From assembly GCA_003152995.1 (NCBI GenBank), contig PMBR01000117.1, forward strand, positions 1 through 63,981: a stretch of 63,981 nt of DNA, read 5' to 3'. This DNA comes from Chloroflexota bacterium (lineage in GTDB: Bacteria > Chloroflexota > Limnocylindria > Limnocylindrales > CSP1-4). The position numbers and the translations under genes are program-made. A model generated the notes under the pieces. It saw nothing but the letters and a program-made list of their open reading frames with translations, did not search any database and was not told the DNA's origin. Shown piece by piece: positions 4,960-51,715 of the stretch (the stretch's first letter is position 1; every line of letters begins with the position of its first letter).

Positions 4960-5159
4960 AGTTCCCTCCGCGCATTCGCCTGTCCCGACCCGCCAACGGC
5001 GCCGGCTCCCAAGGTTACCGGTCCATTGTGCTGCCTGGAAGGTCCGGAAACACTACGCGAACATCGTCTGCAATCAGATTCTGAGGAGCCTTCGCCGAGA
5101 AACCGCCGTCGCCGGGACGATCCGTCTTCGTCTCGGCGCCGGAGCCCCGGTTCCCACGC

Positions 5160-6681: not shown

Positions 6682-6862
6682 GATCGCGCTCCCCTCCGGG
6701 CCCTGTATCCGTCCAAGCAGGGCGATGGTCCGATTGTAGGCGGCAGCCCGCTACGGCACGAGACCAGATCGTTCGTGCTCGGCTATGTGGTCATCGTGTG
6801 GGTTCGGTGTGGCGCGCAATCCGACCCGCGCGCGATGCTTCGCCTCCGTCCACGGGTCCTGG

Positions 6863-9970: not shown

Positions 9971-10163
9971 GCTGTACCCCTTCGTCGAGTCTCCCCTAGG
10001 ACGCATGCTTCCACGGTAGCCAGCGAAGTCACTATGCATATGGGCCACTTGGCTAGTCAGAGGCGTACTCGCCGAGCGCCCGCGATGCCGCGATGGTGAA
10101 CTCACTTTGGCACGACGAAGACGAGAGGGTCGTGACGAACCGAGCACCGGTAGAATCGCCCGC

Positions 10164-10784: not shown

Positions 10785-10940
10785 TCAGCGAGGGCACCAA
10801 AATAGCCTAGTCCTGGCGACCTCTGACCAGATTCCGGGCGGTGGGAGAGTCGTCGTCGCCACCATTTGGTCATAGCGTTGCTATCCGAGCGCACCTGAGT
10901 GAGGTATGTGGGTGACCACTCCGCACCCGAGGCGCCCACG

Positions 10941-11876
10941 ATGACCGCTCAACCGCTCCCCGCACTGACCAGCGGAGACCCATCTGCCTGGGACCAGGCC
11001 CTCTACGCCTTCTTGATCGAGAAGGGCAACCGGTCGGGCTCGAAACGCACCGTCGAGTCCTACAGCCGGATGCTCTGGCCGTTCTTCGCCGACCTCGGCA
11101 AGACGCCTGATCGAGTCAAGCCGGCCGACGTCCTGGCCTGGGTGCACGGCATCGGCAAGTCGGGCCGGACCCCTTCGGCAACCACGGTCGGCGCCAGGAT
11201 CGCGTGCCTCTCCTCCCTGTACCGCTTCTTGATCCGGATGGGTCTGGTTGTCTCGAACCCCTGCGACGCCGTCGAACGGCCCAGGGCGGTCCAGTCGGTC
11301 GCTCGGGGTTACAGCGCCGATGAGGTACGTCGGCTCCTTGCCGTCGTCCCCGACACCATTGCCGGCCGGCGCGACCGGGCCATCCTGCTCACCCTCGTCT
11401 TGACCGGGAGACGGCGGGCGGAGGTGATCGGCCTGCGCGCAGGCGACCTGAGTCTGGAGGGGGAGACCACCTTCTACGCCTACCGAGGCAAAGGGGGCAA
11501 GCGAGGACGACGAGAACTCCCCCACCCCGCTTACGAGGCCATCTGCGCAACGCTCGCCGACGCCGGCAAGGAGCTGGCGACCATGGCTCCTGCCGAGTCG
11601 CTCTGGCAAGCGGCTGCTCGGCCGGAGGGAGTCACAAGCGGCACGTTCTACGCCCGCTTCAGACGCTACCTCGCGGCGGCTGGCATGGCCCCGACTGGCA
11701 TCCATGTCCTGCGGCACACCGCTGCCAAGCTGCGACGCGATGCTGGCGAGTCGATCGAGTCGGTCAGCCAGTTCTTGGACCACAGTTCGCTCGCGGTCAC
11801 GAGCGTCTACCTCCGCCGACTCGAGGGTCAGGAGGACCTGACCTGGCGCGAAGTAGCGCAGGCGATCGGGGTCTAG
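10941..11876 (+). CDS. Tyrosine recombinase/integrase (XerC/D-like), copy A
   Basis: TGRRRAEV, HVLRHTAAKL and LAVTSVYL supply the R, H-x-x-R and Y catalytic elements. About 92% aa identity by hand count to 45883..46818. Start ATG 10941 chosen because homology between the copies and the shared MTAQPLPAL begin there. Confidence 0.9.
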   Translation: MTAQPLPALTSGDPSAWDQALYAFLIEKGNRSGSKRTVESYSRMLWPFFADLGKTPDRVKPADVLAWVHGIGKSGRTPSATTVGARIACLSSLYRFLIRMGLVVSNPCDAVERPRAVQSVARGYSADEVRRLLAVVPDTIAGRRDRAILLTLVLTGRRRAEVIGLRAGDLSLEGETTFYAYRGKGGKRGRRELPHPAYEAICATLADAGKELATMAPAESLWQAAARPEGVTSGTFYARFRRYLAAAGMAPTGIHVLRHTAAKLRRDAGESIESVSQFLDHSSLAVTSVYLRRLEGQEDLTWREVAQAIGV

Positions 11877-11898
11877 ATCTACACCCACCCAACGGCGG

Positions 11899-12693
11899 CT
11901 AGAAGAACGGTTCGAACCTGGGAAGCACGTTTCGAGTGACTGCGCTATAGAGGTGGTTGACTACGTCCTCGAGGGGCCAAGCAGACGCCCAAAGCGGCCA
12001 GTCCTCTGCGAACCCCCGAGGGGGCTGCGCCAGCGTTACCTGGATCGCGAAGCGTGCCTGAAGTCCAGATATTGCTGAGTCGATTGGGAGCCAAATCTCA
12101 GCGTCATTCCTGGTGGTGGGAACGGCAAAGCCAGGCTCCGAGGTATCGCCGTCCGGTCGGTTGTAGGTCGCGGAGTCTGGCATCACGAACGAGTAGCCAA
12201 ACAAGATCGTCCGATGTTTCGCCACATTCCAGAGCGTTTCGAGAGTGGCAAGGGCGCGATAAGTGCTCCAGTCGTCCCCATCCTCGCGTCGACTCTCATA
12301 TGGCTGCAACTCTTCGATGATCCGATTGGCGTCGTCGGGAACGGAATCGAGTTTCCTCTTGCTGAGAGCCGTGAAGCCGCCAGATCCATCGGATTGGCGA
12401 CAAATAGGGAAGGCTGAGCCTCTCGAGGGCCCGTCGGGTCGCATCTCGCCGACCAGATAATCGAGGCTTGATCGAAGGTTGTCGATGAAGTCTCCTACGG
12501 TGAGGGCCACGTCGGATGGCACGGGCTCGGGATCATGGGCTCGCCAGATACGGCATTGGACACCATTCCGCTCGCCGATGCCTTCGGTCACCAAGAAGGG
12601 TCTTCGAAGGCGGTACGTGTCCAACTGACGCAGGAGCGATTCACGATGGCGGTTTGCCCATTGGATCTTGAGCACCAATGCTTGAGGGGTCAC
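11899..12693 (-). CDS. Hypothetical cargo protein (264 aa) in the variable slot of module A
   Basis: Start GTG 12693 (or TTG 12696) preceded by GGAGG. The upstream part of the 415-aa track ORF runs through the non-coding repeat. No confident family assignment. Confidence 0.55.
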   Translation of the reverse strand: MTPQALVLKIQWANRHRESLLRQLDTYRLRRPFLVTEGIGERNGVQCRIWRAHDPEPVPSDVALTVGDFIDNLRSSLDYLVGEMRPDGPSRGSAFPICRQSDGSGGFTALSKRKLDSVPDDANRIIEELQPYESRREDGDDWSTYRALATLETLWNVAKHRTILFGYSFVMPDSATYNRPDGDTSEPGFAVPTTRNDAEIWLPIDSAISGLQARFAIQVTLAQPPRGFAEDWPLWASAWPLEDVVNHLYSAVTRNVLPRFEPFF

Positions 12694-12875
12694 CAACCTA
12701 CCCTCCGTCTTGGGGAAACCGCGAGGGTCCGTCGGGCCCCGCTGCCCATCCAGACTACGCCGGCCGGTCTGCAGTTTCCTGTCCGGTGGGCGCGAGTCGG
12801 GGTGCAAGATGGTTGGCAACCATCCCGCGGGAGCAGATAAGCCGCAGCTAAGCGGCGCCTGATACGGTCGCTCCG

Positions 12876-12957
12876 GGTCGGGCTCCGCTCTGTGACCGGG
12901 CCGATGCCGGACGACGGTGAGCGAGCCAGCGAGGCGGCTGCCCCAGGCGTCCCGACC
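12876..12957. repeat. 82-bp conserved repeat, copy 1 (homology to copy 3 extends back to about 12824)
   Basis: ggtcggg...cccgacc termini form a 7-bp inverted repeat. Nearly identical to 47849..47930 except for a cluster of 4 substitutions at about 12937-12945. Confidence 0.85.
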
Positions 12958-12973
12958 CAACCGGCCGGCGTCT

Positions 12974-13189
12974 CTACCGATTGGTATCGCGCAGTCGCCG
13001 GCGAAGCTCGTCGCCGTCCTTGTCGCCGACACTGAGTCTCGGGTCAGGAAAGTACGGGCCCGCAATGACGGTTGCGCCACAGACTGGACAGCGGAACTTC
13101 GGACTGCCACGCAGGTGGCCGGTCTTGCGCACGAACCGATGCCCACTCGGGCAGATCAGCTCCAACTGCTGATCGTCAAAAGGCGCCAA
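12974..13189 (-). CDS. Small zinc-ribbon protein (about 71 aa)
   Basis: TTG at 13189 lies 7 nt after GAGGA. Motif CPSGH...CPVCG. The longer track ORF runs through repeat copy 2. Confidence 0.45.
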   Translation of the reverse strand: MAPFDDQQLELICPSGHRFVRKTGHLRGSPKFRCPVCGATVIAGPYFPDPRLSVGDKDGDELRRRLRDTNR

Positions 13190-13270
13190 ATGCTGATCCT
13201 CTAACGCGGCGCTTGGGTCAGATGAGCCGTCGCGCGAATCTAAGTCCTGGGCAGAAAGCCTATCCGCCCG

Positions 13271-13352
13271 CGTCGAGCTCCGCTCTGGCGCCGGGCCGAT
13301 GCCGGACGACGGTGAGCGAGCCAGCGAGGGTGATGCCGCAGGCGTCCCGACC
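13271..13352. repeat. 82-bp conserved repeat, copy 2 (5' arm degenerate)
   Basis: Matches copies 1 and 3 over 'ctccgctct...gccgggccgatgccggacgacggtgagcgagccagcgagggtgatgccgcaggcgtcccgacc'. Confidence 0.85.
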
Positions 13353-13408
13353 CGTCGGTCCCACAGGGCGGCAGGATCGGACGTGGGCGGTGGTTGCACC
13401 CGCGCGGA

Positions 13409-14329
13409 TCAGGTCGACGAGCCGCCACTCGCAGCGTCTTCGACCCGCAGTCGCCTGCGACGCGCATCCTGGCGCTCCGCGTTCTTCACCTTGCGACAGT
13501 TGGAACACCAGACTGCGTCCGATCTGCGGCGATGTCCGCCGGGGCTACGGTCTGGGAGAAGAGCCCCGCATCTGCGACATGCCGACGGCCGTCCGGAGGT
13601 CGTCATGGCAGAGCGAGCTTGGAGTTGGGCGATTAGCTGAGCGTACGCGTAGCCCAAGAGCGTCAGGCAGCGCACCTCGGGCATTGGTTGAGCCGGAGAC
13701 CAATCTCGCTGATGTATAGGCTTGGCAAGCCAGTCCTCCATCGGAACCCGCAAAGACCAGGTCTCCTCCACGGTGAGGGAGACCCATTCGAGGATCTGCC
13801 ACTCGCCGGTCTCCATGTCGCGCGGCGAGGGCGATGGTCGTCCCGGCTTGAGGTTGAGACCATTGCGGCCCACGTCTAGCGGTCGAAGGTCGGCTAGGGA
13901 GCTCTGCAGCGCGGCTGCCGCCTGGCGTCGAACCGAGTCAAACCGCTCCAGCGTCGAAGCCTTAGAACCTCTGGCTTGAGCCCGTGCCCCAGCCAGCCCG
14001 ACTCGCGCCAAATCCCGCAGGAGCCCAAGGACCAGCGCCTCTGATCGGATCGCGTCGACGATCTCAGCTTTGGGCGTGCCGGACGAAGTCGAGTAGAGCC
14101 CAGTGAAGCGATTAGCGAACCGCTCAACGGCCTGATCGTCGGCATTTGCCAGGTCAACAAGCCGATCGAGCAGCTCCGGGTCACCTTGAAACGGCGGCTC
14201 GTGGAGTCGGCCGTCGGCCACCAGGCAGATGTCGCCGTCAAGTTCAGCCAACCGCCAGCGCCAGCGCTCCAGGAACACTCGGAAGGGGAAACCGAACCAG
14301 TCTGGTAGAAGTGTGTGCGGATCCGTCAC
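13409..14329 (-). CDS. Hypothetical protein with C-terminal zinc ribbon (306 aa)
   Basis: GTG start. C-terminus CRRCGALLP...WCSNCRKV. No family recognised. Confidence 0.55.
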   Translation of the reverse strand: MTDPHTLLPDWFGFPFRVFLERWRWRLAELDGDICLVADGRLHEPPFQGDPELLDRLVDLANADDQAVERFANRFTGLYSTSSGTPKAEIVDAIRSEALVLGLLRDLARVGLAGARAQARGSKASTLERFDSVRRQAAAALQSSLADLRPLDVGRNGLNLKPGRPSPSPRDMETGEWQILEWVSLTVEETWSLRVPMEDWLAKPIHQRDWSPAQPMPEVRCLTLLGYAYAQLIAQLQARSAMTTSGRPSACRRCGALLPDRSPGGHRRRSDAVWCSNCRKVKNAERQDARRRRLRVEDAASGGSST

Positions 14330-14374
14330 CGGCTAATAGTAGAGCCGGGGTCTCCGGCGTCGTAAGTTCGGTCC

Positions 14375-14557
14375 GTGACAGCGGAACGCGTCGGTCGATC
14401 TCGGCGAGCACCTAGCGAAGCCTCTCGCCGACTTGCACGACCCCTCGACCTAGAGCGTGTATGTGCTCCTGACGCGCCGGCTATGGTGGCTGCCCTTCGG
14501 GTGGTTCTAGGCCTTCCGAGACAGCTTCCCGACCGCGGTCAGGGAGGTGCCCGATGA
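14375..14557 (+). CDS. Small conserved ORF translationally coupled to LSR-A
   Basis: Its stop overlaps the LSR start (ATGA). The C-terminal roughly 40 aa, RRLARPLDLERVCAPDAPAMVAALRVVLGLPRQLPD, are conserved with 48812..49027. Many differences are synonymous, including aga/cgc and ctt/ttg. The true start is uncertain. Confidence 0.6.
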   Translation: MTAERVGRSRRAPSEASRRLARPLDLERVCAPDAPAMVAALRVVLGLPRQLPDRGQGGAR

Positions 14558-16212
14558 CGGTGGCGGCAGGGGTCCGGCGAGTCGCGACCTACGAGCGAGT
14601 GAGCAGCGACGACCAGCGCGAGCGCGAGACCATCAAGACCCAGACCGATCAGCTGGATCGCTGGCTCGCTCGCGAGCCCGGTGTCGAGCTCGTTGGCCGG
14701 TACAAGGACGATGGCGTTAGCGGAACCATCGCCCTGCAGGATCGCCCCGGTGGTGGCAGGCTGCTGCGCGACGCGGCGGCGGGACTCTTCACCGAGCTGT
14801 GGGTGTACAAGACCGATCGGCTCGGTCGCGATGCCCCCGACGTCCTCCAGGTGCGTAGGCGACTCTCCTGGCTAGGCATCCGGCTTCTGAGCGAAGCTGA
14901 AGGCGAACAGAGTCCTCTCGCGTTCGACATCCAGACCGTGGTCGACGACTACTCCCGGGTCGAGTTCCTGCGCAAATCTGCCCACGGTATGGCGCGCGCC
15001 GCCCGTGAAGGCCGCTACTGCGGCGGCATCGTCCCCTTCGGCTTCCGAGTCGAGGGCGCCAAGCAGACAGCTCGCCTGGTGCCCGATGAGACGATTGTTT
15101 GGGCCGACAAGAGCGCAGCCGATCTCGTCCGCGATATCTACGAGCGTCTCTCCCTTAGGCGCCAGAGCTGCCGAGCGATTGCCCTCGACTTCAACGTTCT
15201 CGCTATTCCGACTCACTACACACGCGACGGGCGCGGGGTGAGGGGCAAGCTAACGCAGGGTTTGTGGCGGGCGGGTCGTATCCGCAACCTCGTGGTCAAC
15301 CCGGTCTATCGCGGCGAGCTGCAGTACGGCCGGCGGATCGACCAGCGCGGTCCCAAGACCGAGCGTCGTGGTCACGAGATTACCAGCGCTCCCATCGAAG
15401 GCTTGGTCTCCCCTACCCTCTGGCAAGCCGCCCAGGATGCCCTGGCCGCCAACCGCCGCTGCACCAAGAACACCCACAGGGTCTACCTCCTCAAGGGCGT
15501 GATGAAGTGCGGCATCTGCGGCCTGACCTACGGTGGCTCAGCAGGCACGCCCAACAATTGGTATCGCTGCCGCGGACAACTTTCAGATCGCGGTCCGGTG
15601 GTCGGCCGCTGTCCTGGGTATTCGATCCGCGACGATCGGGTCGAACCTGTCATCTGGACCGAGGTGGAAGCCTGGCTGCGCAATCCAGGCGATGTGCTTG
15701 ATGCCCTTGACGGCACCCGCGAACGCGAGGCTGCCGGAGCCATTGCCGAAGCCGAGTCGATCACCCTGCGGCGGGCCCTTGATGGACTCGAAGCTCAGCG
15801 CAAGCAGGCCACTGCCCTCAACATCCGCGGCCGGCTCAGTGATGCGGACCTCGACGCCGAGCTTGATCGCATCGAGATGGAACGAGGGGCGCTGGAAGCC
15901 CGCGTGGCCGCGTCAGAGGCCGCTATGGGCGATCCGCTACCCCAGGAGGCGCACGACTTCCTGACTGAGATCAGAGCCCGCCTGGACGCCGGACTGACCG
16001 ATGAGCAGCGGGCCGAGATCGTCCGCCTCCTCGTGCGCATCGTCATCCACACCGACCTGTCCGGCCCCAAGAAGACCGTCAAGGCCGCAGTGACGTTCCG
16101 CTTTCCCGCTGTAGTTAGTTTCTTCACGGGCATCCGTGAAGAGGTGAACTACACCACCGTGCGCCGGGTGATCGAGTTGCCGGTGGGCCGCCAGAAGGTA
16201 GCGGTGGGATGA
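14554..16212 (+). CDS. Large serine recombinase (LSR-A)
   Basis: Resolvase catalytic motif YERVSSDDQ, followed by recombinase, zinc-ribbon (CGICG...RCRG...GRCPG) and coiled-coil regions. 552 aa. Confidence 0.9.
   Translation: MTVAAGVRRVATYERVSSDDQRERETIKTQTDQLDRWLAREPGVELVGRYKDDGVSGTIALQDRPGGGRLLRDAAAGLFTELWVYKTDRLGRDAPDVLQVRRRLSWLGIRLLSEAEGEQSPLAFDIQTVVDDYSRVEFLRKSAHGMARAAREGRYCGGIVPFGFRVEGAKQTARLVPDETIVWADKSAADLVRDIYERLSLRRQSCRAIALDFNVLAIPTHYTRDGRGVRGKLTQGLWRAGRIRNLVVNPVYRGELQYGRRIDQRGPKTERRGHEITSAPIEGLVSPTLWQAAQDALAANRRCTKNTHRVYLLKGVMKCGICGLTYGGSAGTPNNWYRCRGQLSDRGPVVGRCPGYSIRDDRVEPVIWTEVEAWLRNPGDVLDALDGTREREAAGAIAEAESITLRRALDGLEAQRKQATALNIRGRLSDADLDAELDRIEMERGALEARVAASEAAMGDPLPQEAHDFLTEIRARLDAGLTDEQRAEIVRLLVRIVIHTDLSGPKKTVKAAVTFRFPAVVSFFTGIREEVNYTTVRRVIELPVGRQKVAVG
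16121..16142. other. Perfect palindrome tcttcacgg-gcat-ccgtgaaga; candidate attP-type recombination site inside the LSR-A 3' end
   Basis: 9-bp arms with a 4-bp spacer. The homologous position in LSR-B (50597..50609) keeps only the left arm and spacer, after which comM sequence starts. Confidence 0.55.
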
Positions 16213-17564
16213 GCAGCCTCGAGCGCCTCGGTGACAGTGCTGCAGCCCGCAAGGTGTTTGCGCGTGTCGAAGAGACCGCTCAGGACGGCGTGGTGGCCAT
16301 CAAGCCCGTCGCGCCGCTGCCCGAACCACTCGAAGCGATCGACCTCTCGCAGGTTCGAACCCGACCCATCGACTGGCTGTGGCGCGGCTACATCCCGCTG
16401 CGCAAGCTCACGATCCTCGATGGCGACCCGGGTTTGGGTAAGTCGACGATCCTGCTCGACTTGGCCTCACGTGGCTCGATTGGCGGTGTGGCGCCCACAG
16501 GTGAGCCCCTCGGCGATGCCTTCACGACCATCTACATCACGGTCGAGGACGACGCCGAAGACACGATCCTGCCGCGCATCCTCAAGGCCGGGGGAGACCC
16601 ATCTCGGTTCCACCTGGTCCGGAAGCTCGTCCTGCCCGCGGAGATCGACAGGCTCGAAGAAGCAGCCACAAGGCTGAAGGCTCGACTGATCGTCATCGAT
16701 CCGCTGATGGCCTACCTCGGCGATGGGGTCAAGACCAACGACGACCATCTCGTCCGCCGGGCCCTGGAACCGCTAGCCGAAATGGCTGCTCAACTCGACG
16801 CCGCAGTCGTGGCCATCCGCCACCTGAACAAGCGGGTCGGTGATGACGCGATCTACCGCGGCGGCGGCTCGATCGGGTTCGCGGGACTCGCCCGCAGCGT
16901 CCTAGCCGTTGGTCGCGATCCCGACGACTCCGACCGGATGATCCTTGCGGCCACCAAGCTCAACGTGGCCCGGCGCCCTGCCTCGCTGGCCTACCGGATC
17001 GTCGCCGACGGCGACTACGAGCCGGCCCACATCGCCTGGGACGGAACGTCAGATCGGACCGCCGAAGACCTCATAGGTCGTACCCGAGACGAGGTCGCTG
17101 GACGCTCCAAGACCGGTGACCTCGCCCACGCCATCCGCGAACTCCTCAAGGCGAACGGTGGCTCGATGCCGACCGGCGAGGCGTGCGAGGCCTTGAAGAA
17201 GCAGGGCTTCGACATCAGCTCCCAGGACAACCTCGGGCGGGCTCGGGCCCAAGCCGGCGTCAAGAGTGCCAAGGCGGGATACGCCGGCGGCTGGGTCTGG
17301 TCCTTTTCGTCGTCAGCGGGGAGATCGGAGCCTTCGGTGCCTTCGGAGCCTTGGCAGACCAATCCGTCGAAGACTCCGAAGAGTCCGAAGACACCGACCA
17401 AGACACCGAAGACACCGATTTCCTCCTCTAAGGAAGAACCGGTCTCTTCAACCCCAGAACCATCCCTAGAAGAGGGGGCGGCCACCTTCTGGGAGGACAA
17501 CTCCCTCCTTCAAGGAACGGTCTCCGCCAGTCGCACGAGAACCTTTGAAGGAAGGCCAAGATGA
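16209..17564 (+). CDS. RecA-fold AAA_25/RepA-like ATPase
   Basis: Walker A DGDPGLGKSTILLDLA. ATGA overlap with the LSR-A stop. Lys/Pro/Thr-rich C-terminal tail. Confidence 0.7.
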   Translation: MSSLERLGDSAAARKVFARVEETAQDGVVAIKPVAPLPEPLEAIDLSQVRTRPIDWLWRGYIPLRKLTILDGDPGLGKSTILLDLASRGSIGGVAPTGEPLGDAFTTIYITVEDDAEDTILPRILKAGGDPSRFHLVRKLVLPAEIDRLEEAATRLKARLIVIDPLMAYLGDGVKTNDDHLVRRALEPLAEMAAQLDAAVVAIRHLNKRVGDDAIYRGGGSIGFAGLARSVLAVGRDPDDSDRMILAATKLNVARRPASLAYRIVADGDYEPAHIAWDGTSDRTAEDLIGRTRDEVAGRSKTGDLAHAIRELLKANGGSMPTGEACEALKKQGFDISSQDNLGRARAQAGVKSAKAGYAGGWVWSFSSSAGRSEPSVPSEPWQTNPSKTPKSPKTPTKTPKTPISSSKEEPVSSTPEPSLEEGAATFWEDNSLLQGTVSASRTRTFEGRPR

Positions 17565-18802
17565 GCGTCCAGACTCCCCTGCCCTCCCTGGTCGTCGAGG
17601 AGGTCCCGATCGATCTCCTCCGTCCTGATCCCGCCAACCCTCGACGGATCAGCGACGAGGAGCTGGACTCCCTGGAGCGCAGCCTCCGCCAGTTCGGCTT
17701 CGTCCAGCCGGTCCTCGCTCGCAAGGAGGACAAGACTGTCATCGGCGGTCACCAGCGCCTGCTTGCCGCCCGCCGGCTCGGCCTGGCCACAGTCCCGGTC
17801 ACCTACCTCGATCTATCTACAGAGCAGGCTCGTCTGCTCAACCTCGCCCTCAACAAGATCTCCGGGTCCTGGGACGACGCTTTGCTCGCCCGTCTGCTGG
17901 CCGACCTGCAGGCCAGCCCGAACATCGACCTGACCCTCTCCGGCTTCGGAGACGACGAGATCGCCGATCTCCTCCGCAGTCTGGAGACCCGCGAGAAGAA
18001 GGAGCGGGTCGAGGACTTCGATCTCGACTCCGCTCTAGAGGACGCAACCCGGACTCCGCGCTCCAAGCCTGGCGATCTATGGGCCCTCGGCGAGCACCGA
18101 CTCCTGTGCGGGGACGCCACCAAGCCCGAGGACCTCGAACGGCTTCTGGCTGGCGCTCAAGCCTCGATGGCGTTCACCGATCCGCCATACAACGTCAGCC
18201 TCGGCGATCACGGTGGCCAGCAGAGAGGATCGCGAAAGAGACGGATCGCCAACGACTCCATGGACCCGATCGCCTGGGAGGTCTTCGTCCGGGCCTGGGG
18301 CCGGACGCTCCTGACCAGCGTCGACGGCGCCATCTACTGCGCCATGAGCAGCAAGGAGATGCCGCTCGTGTCGCGGGTCCTGGCCGAGGAAGGCGGCCAC
18401 TGGTCCGACACGATCATCTGGCACAAGGATCGCTTCGTCCTCGGACGTGCCGACTACCAGCGGGCGTATGAGCCGATCTGGTTCGGTTGGCGGGAAGGCG
18501 CGAGCCACCACTGGTGCGGGGATCGCGACCAGGACGACGTCTGGGAGATCAACCGACCATCCGACGCTCCGCTCCACCCCACGATGAAGCCTCTGCCGTT
18601 GATGGAGCGCGCGATTGCCAACAGCAGCGAGGCGGGTGATCTGGTGCTGGACCTCTTCGCCGGCTCAGGCAGCACCCTCATCGCCTGCGAGCGGACCGGC
18701 CGGCGGTGTGCGGCCCTCGAACTCGATCCTCGCTATGTAGACGTAGTGCTGGCGCGCTTCGAGAGGTTCAGCGGCCAGACTGCGGAGCGGCTCGATGGCT
18801 AG
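17561..18802 (+). CDS. ParB-like N-terminal domain fused to N4/N6 DNA methyltransferase
   Basis: IDLLRPDPANPRRI...GGHQRLLAARRLG (ParB/Srx fold). FTDPPYNV and LDLFAGSGSTLIACE methyltransferase motifs. Confidence 0.85.
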   Translation: MSVQTPLPSLVVEEVPIDLLRPDPANPRRISDEELDSLERSLRQFGFVQPVLARKEDKTVIGGHQRLLAARRLGLATVPVTYLDLSTEQARLLNLALNKISGSWDDALLARLLADLQASPNIDLTLSGFGDDEIADLLRSLETREKKERVEDFDLDSALEDATRTPRSKPGDLWALGEHRLLCGDATKPEDLERLLAGAQASMAFTDPPYNVSLGDHGGQQRGSRKRRIANDSMDPIAWEVFVRAWGRTLLTSVDGAIYCAMSSKEMPLVSRVLAEEGGHWSDTIIWHKDRFVLGRADYQRAYEPIWFGWREGASHHWCGDRDQDDVWEINRPSDAPLHPTMKPLPLMERAIANSSEAGDLVLDLFAGSGSTLIACERTGRRCAALELDPRYVDVVLARFERFSGQTAERLDG

Positions 18803-20450: not shown

Positions 20451-20563
20451 ACGCCGTCACCATGGAACGATCGTGAGGTCGCCGTCCGACAACTCCGTCA
20501 CGATGCTAGCTATGCTGGCGTCCCAACCTCAATCGACGGGGCAGGCTCACAGAAGGGGATCAC

Positions 20564-22135: not shown

Positions 22136-22302
22136 GCGGGCCAGGAAGGCAAGCAGCGCTCGGCCGCCACCATGACACCATCGCGTTCGCATCGGCCGTC
22201 CTGCCCAGACCTGGGCTGATTGGCTTCGCTCGCGGGGCCCTGACGTGCCCCCGGTCGGCTCGGTATCCTGTCGGGGCTGACCAAGGCGAGGGACAAGAGG
22301 GC

Positions 22303-25920: not shown

Positions 25921-26023
25921 CGACCTCTACGACTTCCAGGCCCGCAAGCTACGACCCGAGCCTTTTCGGGCTGCGCCGTTTCCTCAGCGTGCGAGACCTG
26001 CGACCCGGTCCAGCTGCGGATAC

Positions 26024-26581: not shown

Positions 26582-26624
26582 TCGGCCTCCTAGCCCCAGG
26601 GATTGCCCTGGCGAAGTATGGTCC

Positions 26625-38514: not shown

Positions 38515-38826
38515 GTGGCGGGGGTGGTCTGGGGCTTTCGCCATGCCTTTGCCTGCGAGGCAGTGGGCGAGTCGGGCACGGGCCGCCGCACCACCCTCGC
38601 CGAGATCTACGGTCGTGGCCTCACGATCGAGAATGTCATCCCGGCCCTGCTAGATCTCAAGGCTTACCCGATCCGCAGGTGCCGCCGTGCGACAGTGGAT
38701 CGTCGCGATCCGCGCATAGCGTCGACGCCGGCTGGTGAGCACAAGACGGCCAACGAGCACAAAGCCTCTACTGTCGTTACGCCTGCTCTCCGCCCATCGG
38801 ATCAGGGTTCACTGCCTGGAGCGTAG
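38515..38826 (+). CDS. Possible small protein in the RHS upstream gap
   Basis: Only an ORF with fairly GC-rich third codon positions. No motif, and it overlaps a convergent gene end. Confidence 0.25.
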   Translation: MAGVVWGFRHAFACEAVGESGTGRRTTLAEIYGRGLTIENVIPALLDLKAYPIRRCRRATVDRRDPRIASTPAGEHKTANEHKASTVVTPALRPSDQGSLPGA

Positions 38827-41537: not shown

Positions 41538-41920
41538 GGCCCAATATACACATTTGAGCGCCCGGACAGACTACATCATCCGTTTCGACACTTTCCGGTT
41601 CTTGATGTCGACCAACGGCTCGTGTCTGCCGCGCCTGTGCGGGTCCGAATCCAACTGTCGCCGTTTGAGAAGGTTGCGGGCATCCGCGCGTCGGTGAAGC
41701 ACTTGCACTCTGAATCGAGTTGACCCGGTAGAGGTCAACGTCGTCTCCGGCCGCCTCGCTACGCCCCTCACGAGGTGGTCATCGTGTCCGCGACCCCCAC
41801 AGTCGAGAGTCGAGCCGGTTCATCCGCGACGGGACCGCCCCGTGTTCTCTGGCAATCGCTCCAGCTGGTGCGGCTGCTTGATGGGCAGGGCCATGACTCA
41901 GCCGAAGGGGCCGGCATCGG

Positions 41921-43033: not shown

Positions 43034-43431
43034 GCGAGCGACCCCTTCTTTAGGTTCGAAGGACGCGACGGCGAACGCCAGTTGCGACCCACGCGATTAT
43101 GCTCGTCCCTCTACCTAGAAGGGGGGCTGATTCGGCGCAGTTCCACGACCTTCGGGCGCGATCGTAGACATCATCGCGGTGGTGCCGGGCCATCAGGGCG
43201 GGCGAAAGTGCTCCGCACGATCAAGCCATAGGGTTGCTCTTGGGGTGAGGTCTGGCCGGTGCCATCATTCGGTCTGCCTCTCCGACGCCTGCCCTCCGCT
43301 GCTGGCCAGGTGGGCCGCCCACTCGATGACGTCGAAGAAGCTTCGTCCGGCCGCCTCGCGGAAGAGAGCCGAAACTGAGAACGTGGGTAGGCGCTCAAGC
43401 GCGGTTGTATTCCGTCACGGCGCCATCTACG

Positions 43432-44601: not shown

Positions 44602-44822
44602 CCGACCCCTTCATCGAGATCCGGCCGGCGGCCGAACCGATGAGCCAATCCTAGCGCGCGCTTGCCGGCCTCGTCCCACCAATCGCACGATCGGGTGATC
44701 GTGGCTCGTGTCTGACGAGCCGCTCCACAAGTTCGGGAGCCAGTAGAGCTCCGACGGGCTTTCGCTGGCGCCGCTACCAGCCGCGGGCCTCGCTCGCATT
44801 ATTGCTGACCGGCAGCTGGCGC

Positions 44823-45659: not shown

Positions 45660-45882
45660 TGAGACCTCCTGAGAACGCGTGCCTGAAGCTCGTTGTCGCC
45701 AAGGGCGGACGCCCCTCCAGGGTGGGGTTCCGCCGGGCGAAGAGGCAGAGTCGATTGGCCCTCAGCCGGCCCGCTTCGTCAGGGCCTACTGGTCCGGCTG
45801 CCACGATGCCGCGATAGCGTTGCTTTCTCCGGCCAGCTGAGTGACTCATGTGGGCGACCACCTTGTACCCGAGGCGCCCACG

Positions 45883-46818
45883 ATGACCGCTCAACCACTC
45901 CCGGCCCTGACCAGCGGAGACCCCTCCGCCTGGGACCAGGCCCTCTACGCCTTCTTGATAGAGAAGGGCAACCGCTCGGGATCGAAGCGGACGGTCGAGT
46001 CATACAGCCGGATGCTCTGGCCCTTCTTCGCCGAGCGCAGCTTGACGCCTGATCGAGTCAAGCCTGGCGAGGTCCTCGCCTGGGTCCATGGCATCGGCCG
46101 CTCCGGTCGGACACCGTCCTCAACCACGGTCGGTGCGCGGATCGCGTGCCTGTCCTCCTTCTACCGCTTCCTGATCAGGATGGGCCTGGTCGTCAGCAAC
46201 CCCTGCGACGCCGTCGAGCGACCCAGAGCCATTCAGTCCGTTGCCCGGGGATACAGCGCCGACGAGGTGCGACGGCTCCTTGCGGTGGTCCCCGACACCA
46301 TCGCCGGGCGGCGAGACCGAGCCATCCTCCTCACACTCGTTCTGACGGGACGGCGTCGGACCGAGGTGATCAGCCTGAAGGCCGGCGACCTCAGCATCGA
46401 AGGCGAGACGGTCTTCTATGCCTACCGAGGCAAGGGCGGTAAGAGAGGTCGGCGGGAACTCCCTCGCCCGGCCTACGAGGCGATATGCGCGACGCTTGCC
46501 GATGCCGGCAAGGAGCTGGCCTCGATGACTCCGGCCGAGTCGCTCTGGCAAGCCGCCGCACGAGTGGAGGGAGTCACGAGCGGCACGTTCTACGCCAGGT
46601 TCCGCCGATATCTGCAGCTTGCCGGCATGGCCCCGACCGGCATACACGTCTTGCGGCATACGGCGGCAAAGCTGCGGCGAGATGCCGGGGAGTCGATCGA
46701 GTCAGTCAGCCAGTTCTTGGACCACAGTTCGCTCGCGGTCACGAGCGTCTACCTGCGCCGACTGGAGGGTCAGGAGGACCTGACGTGGCGCGAGGTTGCG
46801 GAGGCAATCGGGGTCTGA
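45883..46818 (+). CDS. Tyrosine recombinase/integrase, copy B
   Basis: Same catalytic motifs as copy A. DNA homology to copy A spans about 45813..46818. Confidence 0.9.
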   Translation: MTAQPLPALTSGDPSAWDQALYAFLIEKGNRSGSKRTVESYSRMLWPFFAERSLTPDRVKPGEVLAWVHGIGRSGRTPSSTTVGARIACLSSFYRFLIRMGLVVSNPCDAVERPRAIQSVARGYSADEVRRLLAVVPDTIAGRRDRAILLTLVLTGRRRTEVISLKAGDLSIEGETVFYAYRGKGGKRGRRELPRPAYEAICATLADAGKELASMTPAESLWQAAARVEGVTSGTFYARFRRYLQLAGMAPTGIHVLRHTAAKLRRDAGESIESVSQFLDHSSLAVTSVYLRRLEGQEDLTWREVAEAIGV

Positions 46819-46890
46819 GGCTTGATAAGAATCAGTCGGCCCCGGCGCCTTGCGCCAGGAACTCGCCCAGAATCGCCCACCCAACCAGCA

Positions 46891-47691
46891 TCACAGGCGT
46901 GCCCACCGCTCCGAGACTCCACCGATGATCTGCGGGGGTATGCCGAGTGCTGCGACGAAGTTCGGCTCGGGCACGATGGGCACTCCGTAGTCTCGCGCCT
47001 TCTGCAGAGTGGTCGTCACTTCGTTCGAATCGGCGACGATCAAGACCTGCGTCTTCTTGGTAAGCCGTGGGAGCACTTCGCAACCGGCCCATCGAGCGAG
47101 CATGACCTGAGCGTTTCGGTCGAGTGGCGCGCCGTAGAGAGTGGTCGAGCCCTGTCCGCTAAAGACGACGGACTTTCCGCCCCAAGTCGAGTCCGCTGGT
47201 GTCCGATTGTCGGTCGCCAGCTCCACGATGCACTCGCCCGGCGTCCCTAGGTGAAGAACGACACCCACGCCTCCACGTTCAGACTGGAGCGCGGCATCAC
47301 ATGCCACCGCGGGCGGAGTAGCCCCTGATGTCGCCGCAAGCCAGCGAAAGACCGGTTGATAGCTTGCCGCGTCGGTCCGAGACAGGTAGCCCGCCAACGA
47401 CCAGGTGCCGCCCGCCCACAGGACCACAGCAATCGCGTTGCGGTCGTACTGGTTGGCGGGCTCAGCAACGAGCAGTGCCTTGTAGTAGCCCGGCGGCGGC
47501 CCGGGCATCCCAGGCGGGAGATCGTTTGGCCCGGGCGGCCGCGCAAGCCTCACCGACGCTTGTCGGTAGTACTCGCCGACGACCGGCAGCATCGCGTCGT
47601 CGCGCAAACGGGTGAAACACGTCACGTTGAGGCGGGCGGAGTTAACTCCGCTACCACCGAGAAAGCGCCGTAGGAAACTCATGCCTCGCAC
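46891..47691 (-). CDS. HIRAN-domain / BRCT-domain protein (variable-slot cargo of module B)
   Basis: HIRAN-like VVGEYYRQ...LLVAEPANQYDRNAIAVV...GYLSR. C-terminal BRCT-like GKSVVFSG...TKKTQVLIVAD...KARDYGVPIV. Confidence 0.7.
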   Translation of the reverse strand: MRGMSFLRRFLGGSGVNSARLNVTCFTRLRDDAMLPVVGEYYRQASVRLARPPGPNDLPPGMPGPPPGYYKALLVAEPANQYDRNAIAVVLWAGGTWSLAGYLSRTDAASYQPVFRWLAATSGATPPAVACDAALQSERGGVGVVLHLGTPGECIVELATDNRTPADSTWGGKSVVFSGQGSTTLYGAPLDRNAQVMLARWAGCEVLPRLTKKTQVLIVADSNEVTTTLQKARDYGVPIVPEPNFVAALGIPPQIIGGVSERWARL

Positions 47692-47848
47692 CCTCTAGCA
47701 CCGTGAGCACCCTCAATAACCTACGCGCTTTTGGTCAGTGACGGACGACGAGTACGCACGGACTGACCCGTAGCCCCGGCGAAGAGCCCGCGGTCCGAGG
47801 GAGCGCCAGATAAGCGCCCGATAAGCGGCGACTGCTAGGGTCGGCTCG

Positions 47849-47930
47849 GGTCGGGCTCCGCTCTGTGACCGGGCCGATGCCGGACGACGGTGAGCGAGCC
47901 AGCGAGGGTGATGCCGCAGGCGTCCCGACC
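47849..47930. repeat. 82-bp conserved repeat, copy 3 (homology to copy 1 extends back to about 47800)
   Basis: Same orientation as copies 1 and 2. Lies 158 to 239 nt upstream of the HIRAN-BRCT start codon on the minus strand. Confidence 0.85.
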
Positions 47931-47935
47931 TAGCC

Positions 47936-48727
47936 TTGCCGCGCGACCCCACGGGACGTGGGCCGGGGCGAGACAATGCAGCCGTGACAGGGTCGAGAGA
48001 TCGCGATAGCCATGGAAGCGCTCGCGGGCCGCAGGACCAGCGCCGGCTCCATGACTGGCTGGCGTGGGACGAGTCGGTCAGGCGAGGGCGACGCATTCTC
48101 TCCTTCGATCCGGACTGGACGCCCCGACCAGGCGGCCCTCAGTCCCCCGAGTACATCCGCTGGCGACAGGCCGTCGAACTTCGTCGCCTGCTCGCGGAGG
48201 CCAACCGCGCCCTGATCGAGCTGCACCTGCCGGCCCTGTTCCGCGACTACTGGATCGCCTGCTTCCTAGCGCCCTACGAGCGCGATGGTCTCGAGGTCAT
48301 CTGCGATCCGCAGCCAACCGGGGACGTGACCACCGAGCGCGTCTACCCGCCGCCCTCGGAGTCGTGGTTCGACGCGGGCATCGACTACTCCACCGCTCCG
48401 GCCACACTGCTGATAGAGGGACCAGCCGCGCTCGCGAGCAGCCTCGTCCTTCGTGCCGCGGTTCGTCGGGCGCTGGAGAGCAAGCGACGGTCGGGCTTTG
48501 CGGCCCAGCACCCGCTCATGCGGACGCGGCAGATCGGAGCCGTGGCCGAGGATCGCACCGCCGCGAGGGGCCGGCCGAACCCTGCCAAGGAGGTCGCCAT
48601 CCGCCGTGCGCGAGCATGGGCAGCAGGCGGAGAGAAGCCCGAGTTCATTGCGCTTCGCCTCACCGAGCGCGGGTATCAAGTGTCCGCGCGAACCGTGCGG
48701 CGGTGGCTGGACGTGCCGCCAGAATAG
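47936..48727 (+). CDS. Hypothetical protein with C-terminal resolvase-type HTH
   Basis: PEFIALRLTERGYQVSARTVRRWL. The N-terminal limit is uncertain. Confidence 0.5.
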   Translation: MPRDPTGRGPGRDNAAVTGSRDRDSHGSARGPQDQRRLHDWLAWDESVRRGRRILSFDPDWTPRPGGPQSPEYIRWRQAVELRRLLAEANRALIELHLPALFRDYWIACFLAPYERDGLEVICDPQPTGDVTTERVYPPPSESWFDAGIDYSTAPATLLIEGPAALASSLVLRAAVRRALESKRRSGFAAQHPLMRTRQIGAVAEDRTAARGRPNPAKEVAIRRARAWAAGGEKPEFIALRLTERGYQVSARTVRRWLDVPPE

Positions 48728-48811
48728 GGAAATTGACACGCCGTCTGGGCAGCACGAGGGGCCGAAGCCGAAGGCATAGGCGACGATCAGGCCCCCGGAT
48801 AATCTCGCCTC

Positions 48812-49027
48812 ATGGCCGCACGAGACACCGCGACACCAACAGCAGCCGGCGCTACTCGACATGAGACGCCGGCGCCCGGACTCGCCCTGCCTCGTCGTCG
48901 ACTTGCACGACCCCTCGACATCGAGCATGTGTATGTCCCTGACCGCGACGTCATGGCGGCAGCCCTCCGGATCGTCCTGGGACTTCCCCGCCGCTTGCCC
49001 GACGGTCTGCATGGGAGACCTCGATGA
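48812..49027 (+). CDS. Small conserved ORF translationally coupled to LSR-B
   Basis: ATGA overlap with the LSR-B start. C-terminus RRLARPLDIEHVYVPDRDVMAAALRIVLGLPRRLPD is homologous to 14375..14557. Confidence 0.6.
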   Translation: MAARDTATPTAAGATRHETPAPGLALPRRRLARPLDIEHVYVPDRDVMAAALRIVLGLPRRLPDGLHGRPR

Positions 49028-50778
49028 GCGCGATGACAACGGCGGTGGCGGTCCGGCGGGTGGCGATCTACATCCGAGTCAGCAGCGAGGACCAGGCGGA
49101 GCGCGGCAGCATCAAGACCCAGGAGGACGAGATCCGGCGTCGCCTGGAGCGCGAACCCGGAGTGGTCATCGTCGGCGTCTACTCCGATGAGGGCGTGTCG
49201 GGCACGGTGCCCCTGGCCGAACGTCCGGCTGGTGCCAGGCTCCTGGCCGACGCCCGGGCGGGACTGATCGACGAGGTCTGGGTCTACAAGCTCGATCGCC
49301 TGGGCCGCGACCTCATTGGCCTCGCGATCGCCCGCCGCAGCCTCGTGGAGCTTGGCGTCCGCCTGGTCAGCGCCCATGAGGGTGAGCCCGACGAGTTCAT
49401 GTTCGACATCCAGTCCGCGGTCGCCGCCAACGAACGCCGGGTCTTCCTGCGGCGCTCGGCCGAGGGGATGAGCCGGGCGGCGCGAGAAGGTCGCTATACC
49501 GGCGGGATCGTGCCGTTCGGATACCGCGTCGCCGGCGAGAAGCAGAAGGCGCGCCTGGAGCCCGACACGGCCCCGCTGTGGGGCGATCTCTCGGCGGTTG
49601 ATCTCGTGCGCCGCATCTACAACTCGCTCGGTCTGGAGCGCCGGAGTTGCCGCTCCATCGCAGCGGAGTTCAACGCCCTGGGCATCCCGACCCACTACTC
49701 ACGCGATCATCGCGAGGTCAAACGGGGAGAACGCAAGGAGCGCACCCAGGGCCTCTGGCGGGCCGGGCGTATCCGGAACCTGGTCGTGAACCCGATCTAC
49801 AAGGGTCTCCTCCAGTACGGCCGACGGAGTGACAAGGCTCGCGAGCCCATCCCGGCTCAGATCGAGCCCCTCGTGTCTGAGGACCTTTGGCAGGCTGCTC
49901 AGCAGACCCTGGCTGCCAACCGGACCATCGCCAAGAACACCCACCGGCGCTACCTGCTCAAAGGCGTCATCCGGTGCGGCCTCGACGGGTTGACATACGT
50001 TGGCTCGCAGGGCCGCCAGGGTGTCGGCTGGTATCGCTGCGGTGGTCAGCTGGTCGAGCGCGGTCCCCTCCCCGGCCGGTGCTGGGGTCAGTCGATCCGG
50101 ACCGACGTCATCGAACCGCCGATCTGGGACGACATCGAAGCCTGGCTTCGCAACCCTGGCGACATCCTCCAAACGCTCGAAGCGGAGATCGAGCGGGTCC
50201 CGGACGTGCCCGACGAGTCGATCGCCCTTCGCCGTGCCCTCGAAGAGGTCGAGCAACGCCGGCGACGGCTCGTCTCCCTAGCCGAGGAGGGCCTTCAGAC
50301 GACCGCTGAGCTTCGTCCCGAGTTCGCTCGCCTGGCGGGCCAGCGCGAGGAGATCGAGGCACGCCTGACTCGTCTGGCGCCCCGGCCGCAGGAGCCTGTG
50401 CCGGCGGAGACCATCGACCTCCTCTCCGATGTGCGTACTCGCCTGGAATGCGGACTCACCGACGAGCAGCGCCAAGAGATCGTCCGGCTGCTCGTCTCGG
50501 TCGTCGTCCACACCGACACGGGCGCGGACGGCAAGAAGCAGGCCAGAGCGGTGGTGGAGTACCGGTTCCCCAATGGCGTAGATGGTGTAGTCGATTTCTC
50601 CACGGGCATGGATTCATCGCGGCGACGAGTTGGAAACGTGACGGGAAGACCGCCGCTCGGCCCACCCGGGCGATCGCGACCTGGCCGTCCTCCAGCGGCT
50701 GTCGCAGCGCCTCAAGAGCACCGCGGTCGAACTCGGGCAACTCATCGAGGAAGAGGATTCCGTCGTGCGCCAAAGTGA
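49024..50778 (+). CDS. Large serine recombinase (LSR-B) with a chimeric C-terminal tail
   Basis: YIRVSSEDQ catalytic motif. About 60-65% identity to LSR-A over the stretches aligned by eye. From about 50610 the reading frame is antisense comM sequence (about 56 aa). Confidence 0.85.
50597..50618. other. Island/chromosome junction (attR-like hybrid site)
   Basis: tctccacgg-gcat matches the left arm and spacer of the LSR-A palindrome. The following ggattcatc is comM coding sequence (antisense of ATGAATCC). Confidence 0.6.
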
Positions 50779-51715
50779 CCTCGCCCGGGGAAAGGCGAGG
50801 GCCGCCGCCGACCATGGCCGCATACGAGATGGTGTGGTGAGGCGATCGGAATGGGCGCCGTCTGATCAAACCTCGTATCGGGACCGTGCCGGCAACAGAG
50901 GCGATGATCGTCGCCACCCGCGATTCCTCGTCGTCGAGAGGGGGCAGCAATCCCGGAATCGTTCTGGCCAGAAGAGTCTTGCCCGATCCGGGCGGGCCGA
51001 TCATCAGCAGACAGTGACCGCCGGCCAGCGCCACCTCCAGGCCCCGTCGAGCCTCCAGTTGGCCTCGTACCTCCGCCAGGTCAGGCGCCGCGTCGCCGTC
51101 CTCCGACGCCTGCCCCACCGCCGAGCAATGAGCGTCTCCGTCATCGGCCTCGAGGCGCACCGCGTCCGATAGTTCGACGCGTGGCGGCATCGTTCGCGTT
51201 CGCCCGTGGCGGCTGGCGCGCAGCAGCGCCGCCGCCTCTGCCAGTGTGGCCGCCGGCACGACCTCGACGCCATCCGCGAGCGACGCCTCAGCAGCGCCAT
51301 CCGCAGGCACGATCACGCGCCTGACGCGCCGCCTTCCCAGCGCCATGACCATCGGCAGCAGGCCCGGCACGGGGCGCAGGTCCCCGCCCAGCGACAACTC
51401 GCCGAGCACCGCCCACCTGCCCGTAGCCTTGACCTGCTCCGAACCGACCATGATGCCGAGGGCTATCGCCAGATCGAGCGACGCGCCACCTTTGCGCAGG
51501 TCGGCGGGCGCCAGGTTCACCGTAATGCGCCGTGGTGGGTAGTCGTAGCCGCTGTTCCGGATCGCCCCCCGGACTCGCTCCCGCGCTTCCTGCAAGGCAG
51601 TGTCCGCGAGCCCAACGATCGTGAAGCCCGGCAGACCTGGAGCGACATCGACTTCGACGCGAACGATGCGGCCATCGAGGCCGTGAACGGTGGCAGATAG
51701 CAGTGACGCAAGCAC
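50601..51715 (-). pseudogene. comM: comM/yifB (Mg-chelatase-like ATPase), 5' fragment truncated by island insertion
   Basis: N-terminus [15 protein letters not shown]...[22 protein letters not shown], Walker [18 protein letters not shown], ending ...[11 protein letters not shown], where family members continue CG. The last 47 aa of the track ORF are unrelated island sequence. Confidence 0.85.

Follow-up and report, generated by a model that had tools for sequence, protein, structure and literature searches.

Why should one stretch of bacterial DNA carry, twice over, the same pair of site-specific recombinase genes in the same arrangement? The question is raised by a contig of 63,981 nt (PMBR01000117.1 of assembly GCA_003152995.1, here called the window, meaning the whole stretch that was analysed) from a Chloroflexota bacterium of the Limnocylindrales, in which a gene for a tyrosine recombinase (INT) is followed, at two places, by a gene for a large serine recombinase (LSR). 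The window has a G+C content of 65%, and its nearest relatives are metagenome-assembled genomes (MAGs) from peat and fen labelled Candidatus Limnocylindrales or Chloroflexi. The peat and fen samples that yielded related sequences include those of SPRUCE, Stordalen (‘fen_’) and WOOD18. The original prediction, made from the letters alone, took each copy to be a dual-recombinase module with an exchangeable slot between INT and a short repeat. We favour, with moderate confidence, a different reading: each module is the conserved recombination end of one of two related integrative elements that are inserted in tandem in comM, and these elements serve as a platform for cargo exchange at heterospecific sites, resembling integrons and dif modules.

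Module A (10860-16212) and module B (45802-50608) have identical gene order and orientation, as had been predicted, and share a Xer-like INT, an 84-nt repeat, a small open reading frame (ORF) and an LSR. Pfam places Phage_integrase at 10899-11876 and 45841-46818, and Resolvase, Recombinase and Zn_ribbon_recom at 14554-16212 and 49024-50778. By blastn, homology between the modules is limited to 10872-11874 / 45814-46816 (83.6% of nucleotides identical), the repeat, and 14420-15782 / 48889-50243 (65.8%); the genes lying between these parts are unrelated, as foreseen. The INT proteins are 92.9% identical in amino acids, very near the 92% first estimated, and the LSRs 54.7%, lower than the 60-65% proposed. 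Does this unevenness reflect a recent gene conversion of INT, as had been suggested? Between A and B, synonymous divergence (dS) is 0.73 for INT and 1.08 for LSR, and non-synonymous divergence (dN) is 0.053 and 0.39. Because dS is similar and dN far lower in INT, the difference points to constraint: the two genes appear to have diverged over a similar time with INT under far stronger constraint, and with an INT dS of 0.73 recent conversion is not needed.

Is the pairing peculiar to this genome? Gene neighbourhoods were mined from both recombinases. An INT-anchored genome collection gave 64 loci (numbered with L, several per MAG), and in LSR-anchored metagenomes 264 stretches encode relatives, of which 80 loci were kept. 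From either anchor the architecture recurs, in about 100 loci of Limnocylindrales and other Chloroflexota genomes and metagenomes, and the order of a tyrosine recombinase followed by a serine recombinase on the same strand is fixed. A serine recombinase lies 2.3-6 kb downstream of INT on its strand in about 25 of the about 33 INT-anchored loci with enough downstream sequence, and it belongs either to a family that targets comM or to one that targets tRNA-Arg. INT is found upstream on the same strand in most of those of the 80 kept loci that have at least 4 kb of upstream sequence. In LSR-anchored loci where LSR is 47-51% identical, INT is 58-63% identical, so that the linkage between the two appears to be old and general. 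One LSR locus, L094, lacks INT through a secondary deletion: the INT-proximal site, the promoter region and some 24 codons of INT survive there (L094:9762-10001), joined to the 3′ half of the small ORF immediately before the LSR. This deletion variant is shared by L037 (L037:~3000-3299).

What do the two recombinases act on? For the LSR, the answer lies in its own 3′ end. LSR-A (14554..16212, + strand; Pfam; PHROG 95 integrase, 1.7e-74) consists of a Resolvase N-terminal domain with the catalytic serine (YERVSS motif), a Recombinase domain and a Zn-ribbon, with XisF and CcrB as the best NCBIfam matches. It has a native C-terminus that matches those of L004, L043 and L094, and an intact attP-like palindrome of 42 bp (GTAGTTAGTTTCTTCACGG-GCAT-CCGTGAAGAGGTGAACTAC) is located inside its 3′ end at 16111..16152. 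The homology of LSR-B (49024..50608, +) to other LSRs stops at about 50608, and its ORF reaches 50778 because the frame reads into antisense comM. Here an attR junction at 50595..50619, TTTCTCCACGGGCA joined to TGGATTCATCG, borders a 5′ fragment of comM/yifB (50609..51715, −) that matches positions 1-161 of the 207 in the Mg_chelatase profile (Pfam). The same junction is found in L001, L013, L029, L035, L042 and many of L075-L154, and LSR-B, like many other loci, ends in antisense comM truncated at the codons for ‘NPCP’. In one metagenomic population, represented by ten contigs 99.6% identical and with INT 94% identical, two forms part exactly at CACGGGCA: in one, as in LSR-B, the LSR 3′ end runs into antisense comM, and in the other, as in LSR-A, it has the native ending TGI(P/R)E..NYT..RRV.ELPVGRQ. 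The polymorphism between L001 and L004 breaks at CACGGGCA within the LSR 3′ end, and this point is the centre of the 42-bp palindrome in module A. Since the native and comM-fused forms of one population part at that centre, as an exchange between attP and attB requires, the comparison demonstrates, at the level of sequence, that the LSR is a chromosomal integrase whose attP is embedded in the final ~30 codons of the gene that encodes it, with comM as its target.

Integration into comM swaps the C-terminus of the LSR (the last ~27 codons) and severs the gene from the operon behind it. In module A this backbone operon is in place: genes for an AAA_25 helicase-like protein and a fusion of ParB_N with a DNA methylase (16209..18802, +; Pfam) overlap LSR-A by ATGA, and they also follow native LSRs in L043, L090, L094 and L097. 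A second family of serine recombinases stands behind the same INT in L012, L021, L023, L025, L032 and L033, where its 3′ end overlaps tRNA-Arg(CCG). In both families attP is inside the 3′ coding end of the recombinase and the last ~27 codons are replaced on integration, the first family targeting comM at the ‘NPCP’ codons and the second tRNA-Arg(CCG). The two serine-recombinase element families are unrelated, and the unit of INT and repeat, with INT 87-93% identical, occurs in both.

Only the right-hand element of the window is joined to comM via its LSR. Because LSR-B is fused to comM and LSR-A retains an intact attP and its own AAA_25/ParB-methylase operon, the window holds two related elements in tandem rather than one element with a duplicated module; of the predicted single element with both recombinases, then, the pairing stands and the unity of the element does not. 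No phage structural or packaging protein was matched by Pfam in the scanned ORFs of 16.2-45.8 kb or by PHROGs, which in that region were run on the AAA_25 protein only, and only one related IMG/VR contig was found.

And what does INT act on? When 39 INT upstream regions were aligned, their homology ended at CAC(G/C)AT-N6-ATGGTG, which is directly followed by TTGC(T/A)TTC and lies 61-78 nt before the ATG. The general form of this site is an 18-bp inverted repeat, CAC(G/C)AT-N6-AT(C/G)GTG, with information content restricted to the 18 bp and at background level outside. The core site next to INT-A (caccatTTGGTCatagcg, spacer TTGGTC; 10860..10877, +) abuts a −35-like TTGC and is the left boundary of module homology, the A/B alignment beginning at 10872 in its right arm; the one next to INT-B is cacgatGCCGCGatagcg (spacer GCCGCG; 45802..45819, +). 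Further sites extend away from each INT. Array A comprises sites with the spacers GCGAAC (cactacGCGAACatcgtc; 5051..5068, +), located between the start of a type IIG restriction-modification gene (4959) and the stop of a 134-aa ORF (5160), with a class and position that fit the consensus order described below; GTGGTC (6781..6798, +), intergenic and just before an ORF at 6863-7798 (−); and GCCGCG (cgcgatGCCGCGatggtg; 10081..10098, +), which repeat family D17 ties to the INT-B-proximal site. Ahead of INT-B are a GGAACG site (20458..20475, +), two more sites (22168-22185 and 24079-24096, +) and array B with CCGCGC (38704..38721, +; between the start of an RHS gene and the next ORF), GTGGTC (41769..41786, +), CAAGCC (43216..43233, +) and CGGGTG (44686..44703, +). 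All array sites have one orientation relative to INT. The motif is enriched more than tenfold in the window, with 0.6 matches expected and 7 observed, and 0 of 100 shuffles reach 7. Site density is 1.6 per 10 kb where a close INT is present and 0.5 per 10 kb where INT is lacking, and 18% of the sites fall inside a confident ORF as against 62% of random positions. A match with one mismatch (CACGATGGCTGCCTCGTG) is also present at 53417-53434, outside the element and to the right of comM.

Nor is the choice of spacer random. The spacer classes recur 5-36 times, each time with unrelated flanks, and from the far end towards INT they follow the order GCGTGC, GCGAAC, CCGCGC, GTGGTC, CAAGCC, CGGGTG/CGGGCG, GCCGCG, TTGGTC, which is respected by 162 of 164 site pairs in 38 loci, the same loci that supplied it; the two exceptions resemble a second array. 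What lies between two given classes varies freely: the 19 intervals from GCCGCG to TTGGTC fall into 17 sequence clusters, and the 13 intervals from CGGGTG to GCCGCG into 13. Where blocks are shared, the homology breakpoints coincide with sites, beginning at the first base of the site in L024:612 with L095:1820 and in L018:4553 with L038:5404. The arrays are nested, with CGGGCG, GCCGCG or TTGGTC as the INT-proximal class, and extra blocks sit on the INT side, in L027 and L099 relative to L018 and L036, which suggests that the scaffold may have grown stepwise at that side. Genes in the blocks are oriented away from INT about 2:1. From these comparisons, the exactly bounded exchangeable slots appear to be the intervals between the ordered 18-bp sites upstream of INT, and not the gap between INT and the repeat.

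INT-A (10938..11876, +; 312 aa) matches Pfam Phage_integrase and SAM_1, and INT-B (45880..46818, +) was identified by Pfam and by pairwise comparison with INT-A; the ATG at 10938 / 45880 is the likely start because most homologues are 311-312 aa long. Membership of the tyrosine recombinase superfamily is given by PF00589 (1.8e-17 and 4e-18), and the catalytic residues R, K, HxxR, H and Y are readable in translation as TGRRR, GKGGK, HVLRH, LDHSS and SVYL. INT falls well below the NCBIfam cut-offs for XerC (91.9 bits against 335) and XerD (88 against 330) and those of the integron-integrase models TIGR02249 (45.4 against 265) and PRK15417 (25.6 against 435). It is also multi-copy per MAG, unlike the single-copy housekeeping XerC/XerD of chromosomes. 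The closest solved structures are XerD, XerA and Brujita gp33. More than 3000 homologues were found, and nothing above 36% identity occurs in the plasmid or phage collections. Since it adjoins one site per unit, that site has the anatomy of a core site, and site density is associated with its presence, we infer that INT is the enzyme acting on the 18-bp sites.

How could such an enzyme exchange cargo without scrambling it? Tyrosine recombinases of the Cre, Flp and Xer type require identical spacers in both partner sites. If INT, by analogy, needs the same, each spacer class would pair only with itself. A crossover at one shared class would join two co-resident elements; a further crossover at a different shared class would separate them again with the intervening block exchanged, so that the process would stay in register, with the slot order kept and the cargo reassorted. 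The window looks like the fused or tandem state of such an exchange. That this is a natural multi-slot system, in which a Xer-like recombinase swaps cargo in register over at least eight ordered heterospecific sites and is coupled to a serine integrase carrying its own attP, is a proposal we put forward tentatively, with less confidence than the platform itself.

Several points weigh against this account. That INT cuts the array sites is something that we infer, and each conserved arm, at 6 bp, is shorter than one would expect of Xer-type sites. Upstream of more distant INT homologues (58-68% identity) there is no site of this kind. The consensus order was scored on the very loci that had supplied it, though a random arrangement would leave about half of the pairs discordant. 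The existence of several INT-proximal classes implies either that joints between unlike classes once formed or that arrays grew stepwise. Same-class direct repeats in the window (6781/41769 and 10081/45802) persist undeleted, which makes a constitutively active enzyme unlikely, and more than 20 contigs from other samples have the two arrays of the window in identical form, so that exchange is rare or regulated. Where other contigs overlap the left part of the window they are collinear with it, and those with its exact cassette proteins all show the same neighbours, no swap being caught in the population. Finally, a leftward walk through the source contig gained only 3.9 kb and met no far end of the element, and the 3′ half of comM was not found in the window or any locus by motif search and by tblastn with an E. 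coli YifB C-terminus, a query of limited sensitivity; tandem integration and cointegration are therefore indistinguishable.

Several observations concern INT copies outside the usual setting. INT 3′ remnants lie downstream of a full INT in L030, L040:4726-4815, L057, L061, L131 and L135; in tblastn the aligned part starts at a point between codons 231 and 266 and ends at codons 288-312, and the remnant in L040 begins 33 nt past the repeat. They suggest that INT units may have been added repeatedly while older copies decayed. In L112:3776-4711 and L113:1186-2202 the INT segment is inverted, exactly from core site to stop, relative to the repeat and LSR, and beside it is a fragment like a tRNA 3′ half (GGGTTCAAATCC), where ARAGORN calls no tRNA. 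At L046:9248-9322 a unit of INT and repeat has a tRNA-Glu(UUC) gene on the minus strand 213 nt away, and there is no serine recombinase within 10 kb of the unit. tRNA genes were considered as INT targets and rejected, as there are none in the window and tRNA-Arg is the target of the second serine recombinase family. Metagenome contigs often stop at or just past INT, as at the ends of L160, L169 and L178 (L160 ends 4 nt beyond the INT-A stop codon), as would be expected if INT, present in many copies, interrupts short-read assembly.

What, then, is the region between INT and LSR? The repeat has a core of 84 nt, rather than the 82 first noted, and although the original prediction was right that both modules carry it, there are three copies, two of them in module A. 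Copy 1 (12834..12958, +) has two GATAAG-type boxes, a TGnTAnnnT motif and the core at 12875-12958; copy 2 (13270..13353, +) is a core only, with degenerate boxes; and the copy in module B (47807..47930, +) has boxes, TGCTAGGGT and a core at 47848-47930. In 18 ‘empty’ loci, with 130-170 nt from INT to the repeat, the INT stop is followed by a G+C-rich hairpin with compensatory changes, AGTCTAG, two to four GATAAG boxes at 11-nt spacing, TGnTAnnnT and the 84-nt core, which ends sharply at CCCGACC. In other loci, unrelated genes amounting to 0.36-1.46 kb separate INT from the boxes, on either strand and at differing insertion points. Because insertion point and strand vary, the gap behaves as a hotspot and not as a precise slot; variable genes do lie there, as predicted, and the predicted slot for reverse-strand cargo does not hold.

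In module A the gap contains cargo A2 (11899..12702, −; start uncertain), for which the family libraries searched gave no match. A Zn-ribbon ORF of 71 aa between the two repeat copies (12974..13189, −) is homologous to the cargo between INT and repeat in L020 and L043, and because it fills the gap there, module A has evidently acquired A2 and an additional repeat, both added to an older unit on the side facing INT. A 306-aa ORF, A3 (13409..14329, −), follows. Cargo B2 (46891..47691, −) has weak HIRAN and BRCT matches and a PADLOC match to PDC-S48 (1.7e-10). Variable plus-strand genes, several with HTH-like tails (helix-turn-helix), begin shortly after the repeat and lead to the small ORF and LSR; in module B this is B3 (47936..48727, +), with such a tail at its C-terminus and a homologue in L029. 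The small ORFs (14375..14557 and 48812..49027, both +) overlap the LSR start codon by ATGA, that of module A being translationally coupled to LSR-A. In a comparison of 12 loci their C-terminal half varies synonymously at third codon positions, which marks them as genuine coding sequences. In the N-terminal half the DNA itself is conserved, at 14420-14470 / 48889-48943 and in 12 other loci (TCGACTTGCACGACCCCTCGA..TAGAGCGTGTATG), and this stretch upstream of the LSR may be regulatory instead of, or besides, coding.

The repeat is 81-97% conserved, lies on the INT strand in 87 of 88 nhmmer hits and occurs only in the clade whose INT is at least ~81% identical; nhmmer found no distant copies beyond the blastn set. 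Could it be a structured or guide RNA working with INT, in the manner of the IS110 bridge RNA, or a short coding segment? Its conservation and strand bias, and the likeness of the preceding TGnTAnnnT to an extended −10, would fit an RNA. On the other hand, Rfam 15 gave 0 matches over the whole window at gathering score and a chance-level hit only at relaxed thresholds, the folding energy is no better than that of shuffled sequences, and RNAalifold on 32 copies returned a weak consensus structure with a positive covariation term, that is, no covariation. Nor does the repeat vary with the spacer class of the neighbouring INT-proximal site, as a programmable guide should, and a scan around module B found no consensus sigma-70 promoter or terminator. 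Coding is opposed by 1-nt indels and the lack of codon periodicity. We therefore consider either role improbable. The right end of the repeat was also rejected as a second INT site (attR), having neither arm similarity nor a spacer match with the left site. The repeat and GATAAG boxes may instead form a conserved non-coding region, either cis-regulatory or protein-binding.

How else might the arrays and the linkage of the recombinases be explained? INT might do no more than resolve multimers of an excised, replicating form at the single site beside its own gene, the other motifs being incidental or serving another purpose. A recombinase gene adjoining its site is textbook knowledge for XerS/difSL and Cre/loxP, to which ResD/rfsF may also be likened; moreover, the elements carry replication-type genes (AAA_25/DnaB-like and DUF3631), INT is Xer-like and the arrays are stable in the population. 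A resolution site, however, should share both its flanks with its relatives, whereas homology stops exactly at the site in ~40 loci; distal sites, too, mark homology breakpoints, and ordered recurring spacer classes with unrelated flanks would be left unexplained. We regard resolution alone as unlikely, and give about the same weight to sequential capture, in which circular cassettes, each bringing a site of its own, would enter one after another at an attI-like INT-proximal site, unlike spacers would be tolerated as they are by IntI and Tn916 Int, and the order would record insertion history. Random capture predicts varied neighbour pairs, against 162 of 164 concordant; the same class pair flanks unrelated DNA, so that class is not tied to cassette; and the sites are short double-stranded palindromes rather than attC hairpins, with INT at 45 bits where the integron-integrase model demands 265. 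These objections stand against real likenesses, namely the nested arrays ending at CGGGCG, GCCGCG or TTGGTC, the extra INT-proximal cassettes of L027 and L099 compared with L018 and L036, and the integron-like orientation of cassette genes away from INT (about 2:1).

Rather less likely than these two is that INT and the repeat constitute a selfish unit, similar to an insertion sequence, that inserts independently upstream of serine-recombinase genes, its link with the LSR being parasitic. The multiple copies of INT in single MAGs, the compact ‘empty’ unit of ~1.3 kb with sharp left and right boundaries, the presence of the unit, with INT 87-93% identical, in two unrelated serine-recombinase element families, the remnants beside full copies and the inverted segment in L112/L113 are what such a unit might produce. 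Yet INT at 58-63% where the LSR is at 47-51% indicates co-divergence and a linkage of long standing; nothing at the right end of the repeat looks like the left core or matches its spacer, and no target duplication was found. As for the duplication being an assembly artefact or a chance event in one genome, its probability is negligible: INT is indeed a multi-copy repeat that breaks assemblies and at which contigs end, but the modules differ at 16% of INT and 34% of LSR nucleotides, each was assembled independently in many samples, both are unchanged in more than 20 contigs from other samples, and the architecture is found in ~100 loci. Exchange between ordered heterospecific sites on tandem comM-inserted elements remains the reading that we prefer.

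Among the cargo genes of the window are those for an amidase, for membrane proteins and for a type IIG restriction-modification enzyme; the cargo also comprises an RHS/PT-HINT toxin locus and genes with weak matches to candidate defence families. A 3920-aa RHS/Laminin_G_3 protein and then a PT-HINT ORF (25165-38387, −) make up the polymorphic-toxin locus, which is one large block between the array sites at 24079 and 38704. At positions 1-781 of the window, continuing to the left (L161:2-3493), are tandem repeats with a 150-nt period, 83-91% identical; they are part of the gene for a repeat protein exceeding 1164 aa, which is encoded on the minus strand and runs off the window start.

If INT works as proposed, these elements would represent a third natural way of organizing cassettes, after integrons and dif modules, and the logic of ordered heterospecific sites, so far known only from genome engineering, would occur in nature. 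This would explain how co-resident elements of abundant uncultured peat and fen Chloroflexota reassort their cargo, candidate defence genes, RHS toxins and restriction-modification systems among it, without scrambling it. A further gain would be a compact recombinase with a ready family of orthogonal 18-bp sites, together with two serine integrases with defined targets, comM and tRNA-Arg. The literature search found no description of such arrays, of natural heterospecific exchange or of mobile elements of this lineage.

How does the system compare with those already known? Like an integron, it has a tyrosine recombinase gene with a primary site just upstream and a cassette array extending from that site, and its cassettes are mostly single-gene, promoter-poor and mostly transcribed away from the recombinase, with new ones on the recombinase-proximal side. 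An IntI-type integrase and attC are absent: the boundaries here are double-stranded inverted repeats of 18 bp, each around a 6-bp spacer, whereas integron attC sites are folded hairpins of 60-130 nt, and INT stays below the integron-integrase models (45 bits against 265). The few spacer classes in fixed order, and the location of the platform on a mobile element integrated by an LSR, also set it apart. With the dif modules of Acinetobacter it shares short Xer-type sites with a 6-bp centre that bound accessory modules shuffled between related replicons. Sites of the pdif type, however, are 28 bp long (11-6-11) with distinct XerC and XerD arms, alternate in orientation between neighbours and use the Xer enzymes of the host. 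Here the arms are symmetric and of 6 bp, the orientation is single, the spacers are ordered and a dedicated recombinase stands beside the array, so that the pdif/XerCD pattern of 28 bp, distinct arms and alternating orientation is lacking. On dif modules, with pdif sites used by XerC/XerD, see PMC6449649, PMC13141974 and PMC7399989.

The logic suggested for INT is that of engineered cassette exchange with heterospecific lox or FRT sites, which have identical arms and different spacers and recombine with their own kind; that system is man-made, whereas the array here is natural and the spacer requirement of INT is assigned by analogy. To our knowledge, no natural ordered multi-site array has been known. 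The LSR recalls the serine recombinases of elements that interrupt genes, such as A118 in comK, SPbeta and skin in Bacillus and the fdxN element with XisF, in its domains, its position at the end of the element and its interruption of a conserved gene. It differs from them in that attP is inside the recombinase's own 3′ coding end, with the last ~27 codons replaced, that the target is comM or tRNA-Arg, and that a tyrosine recombinase is constantly linked. An attP within the integrase gene resembles that of the SSV-type archaeal tyrosine integrases (PMC7253208). Taken as a whole, we class the system as a cassette platform driven by a tyrosine recombinase, which acts like an integron or a dif-module plasmid and departs from the defining features of both.

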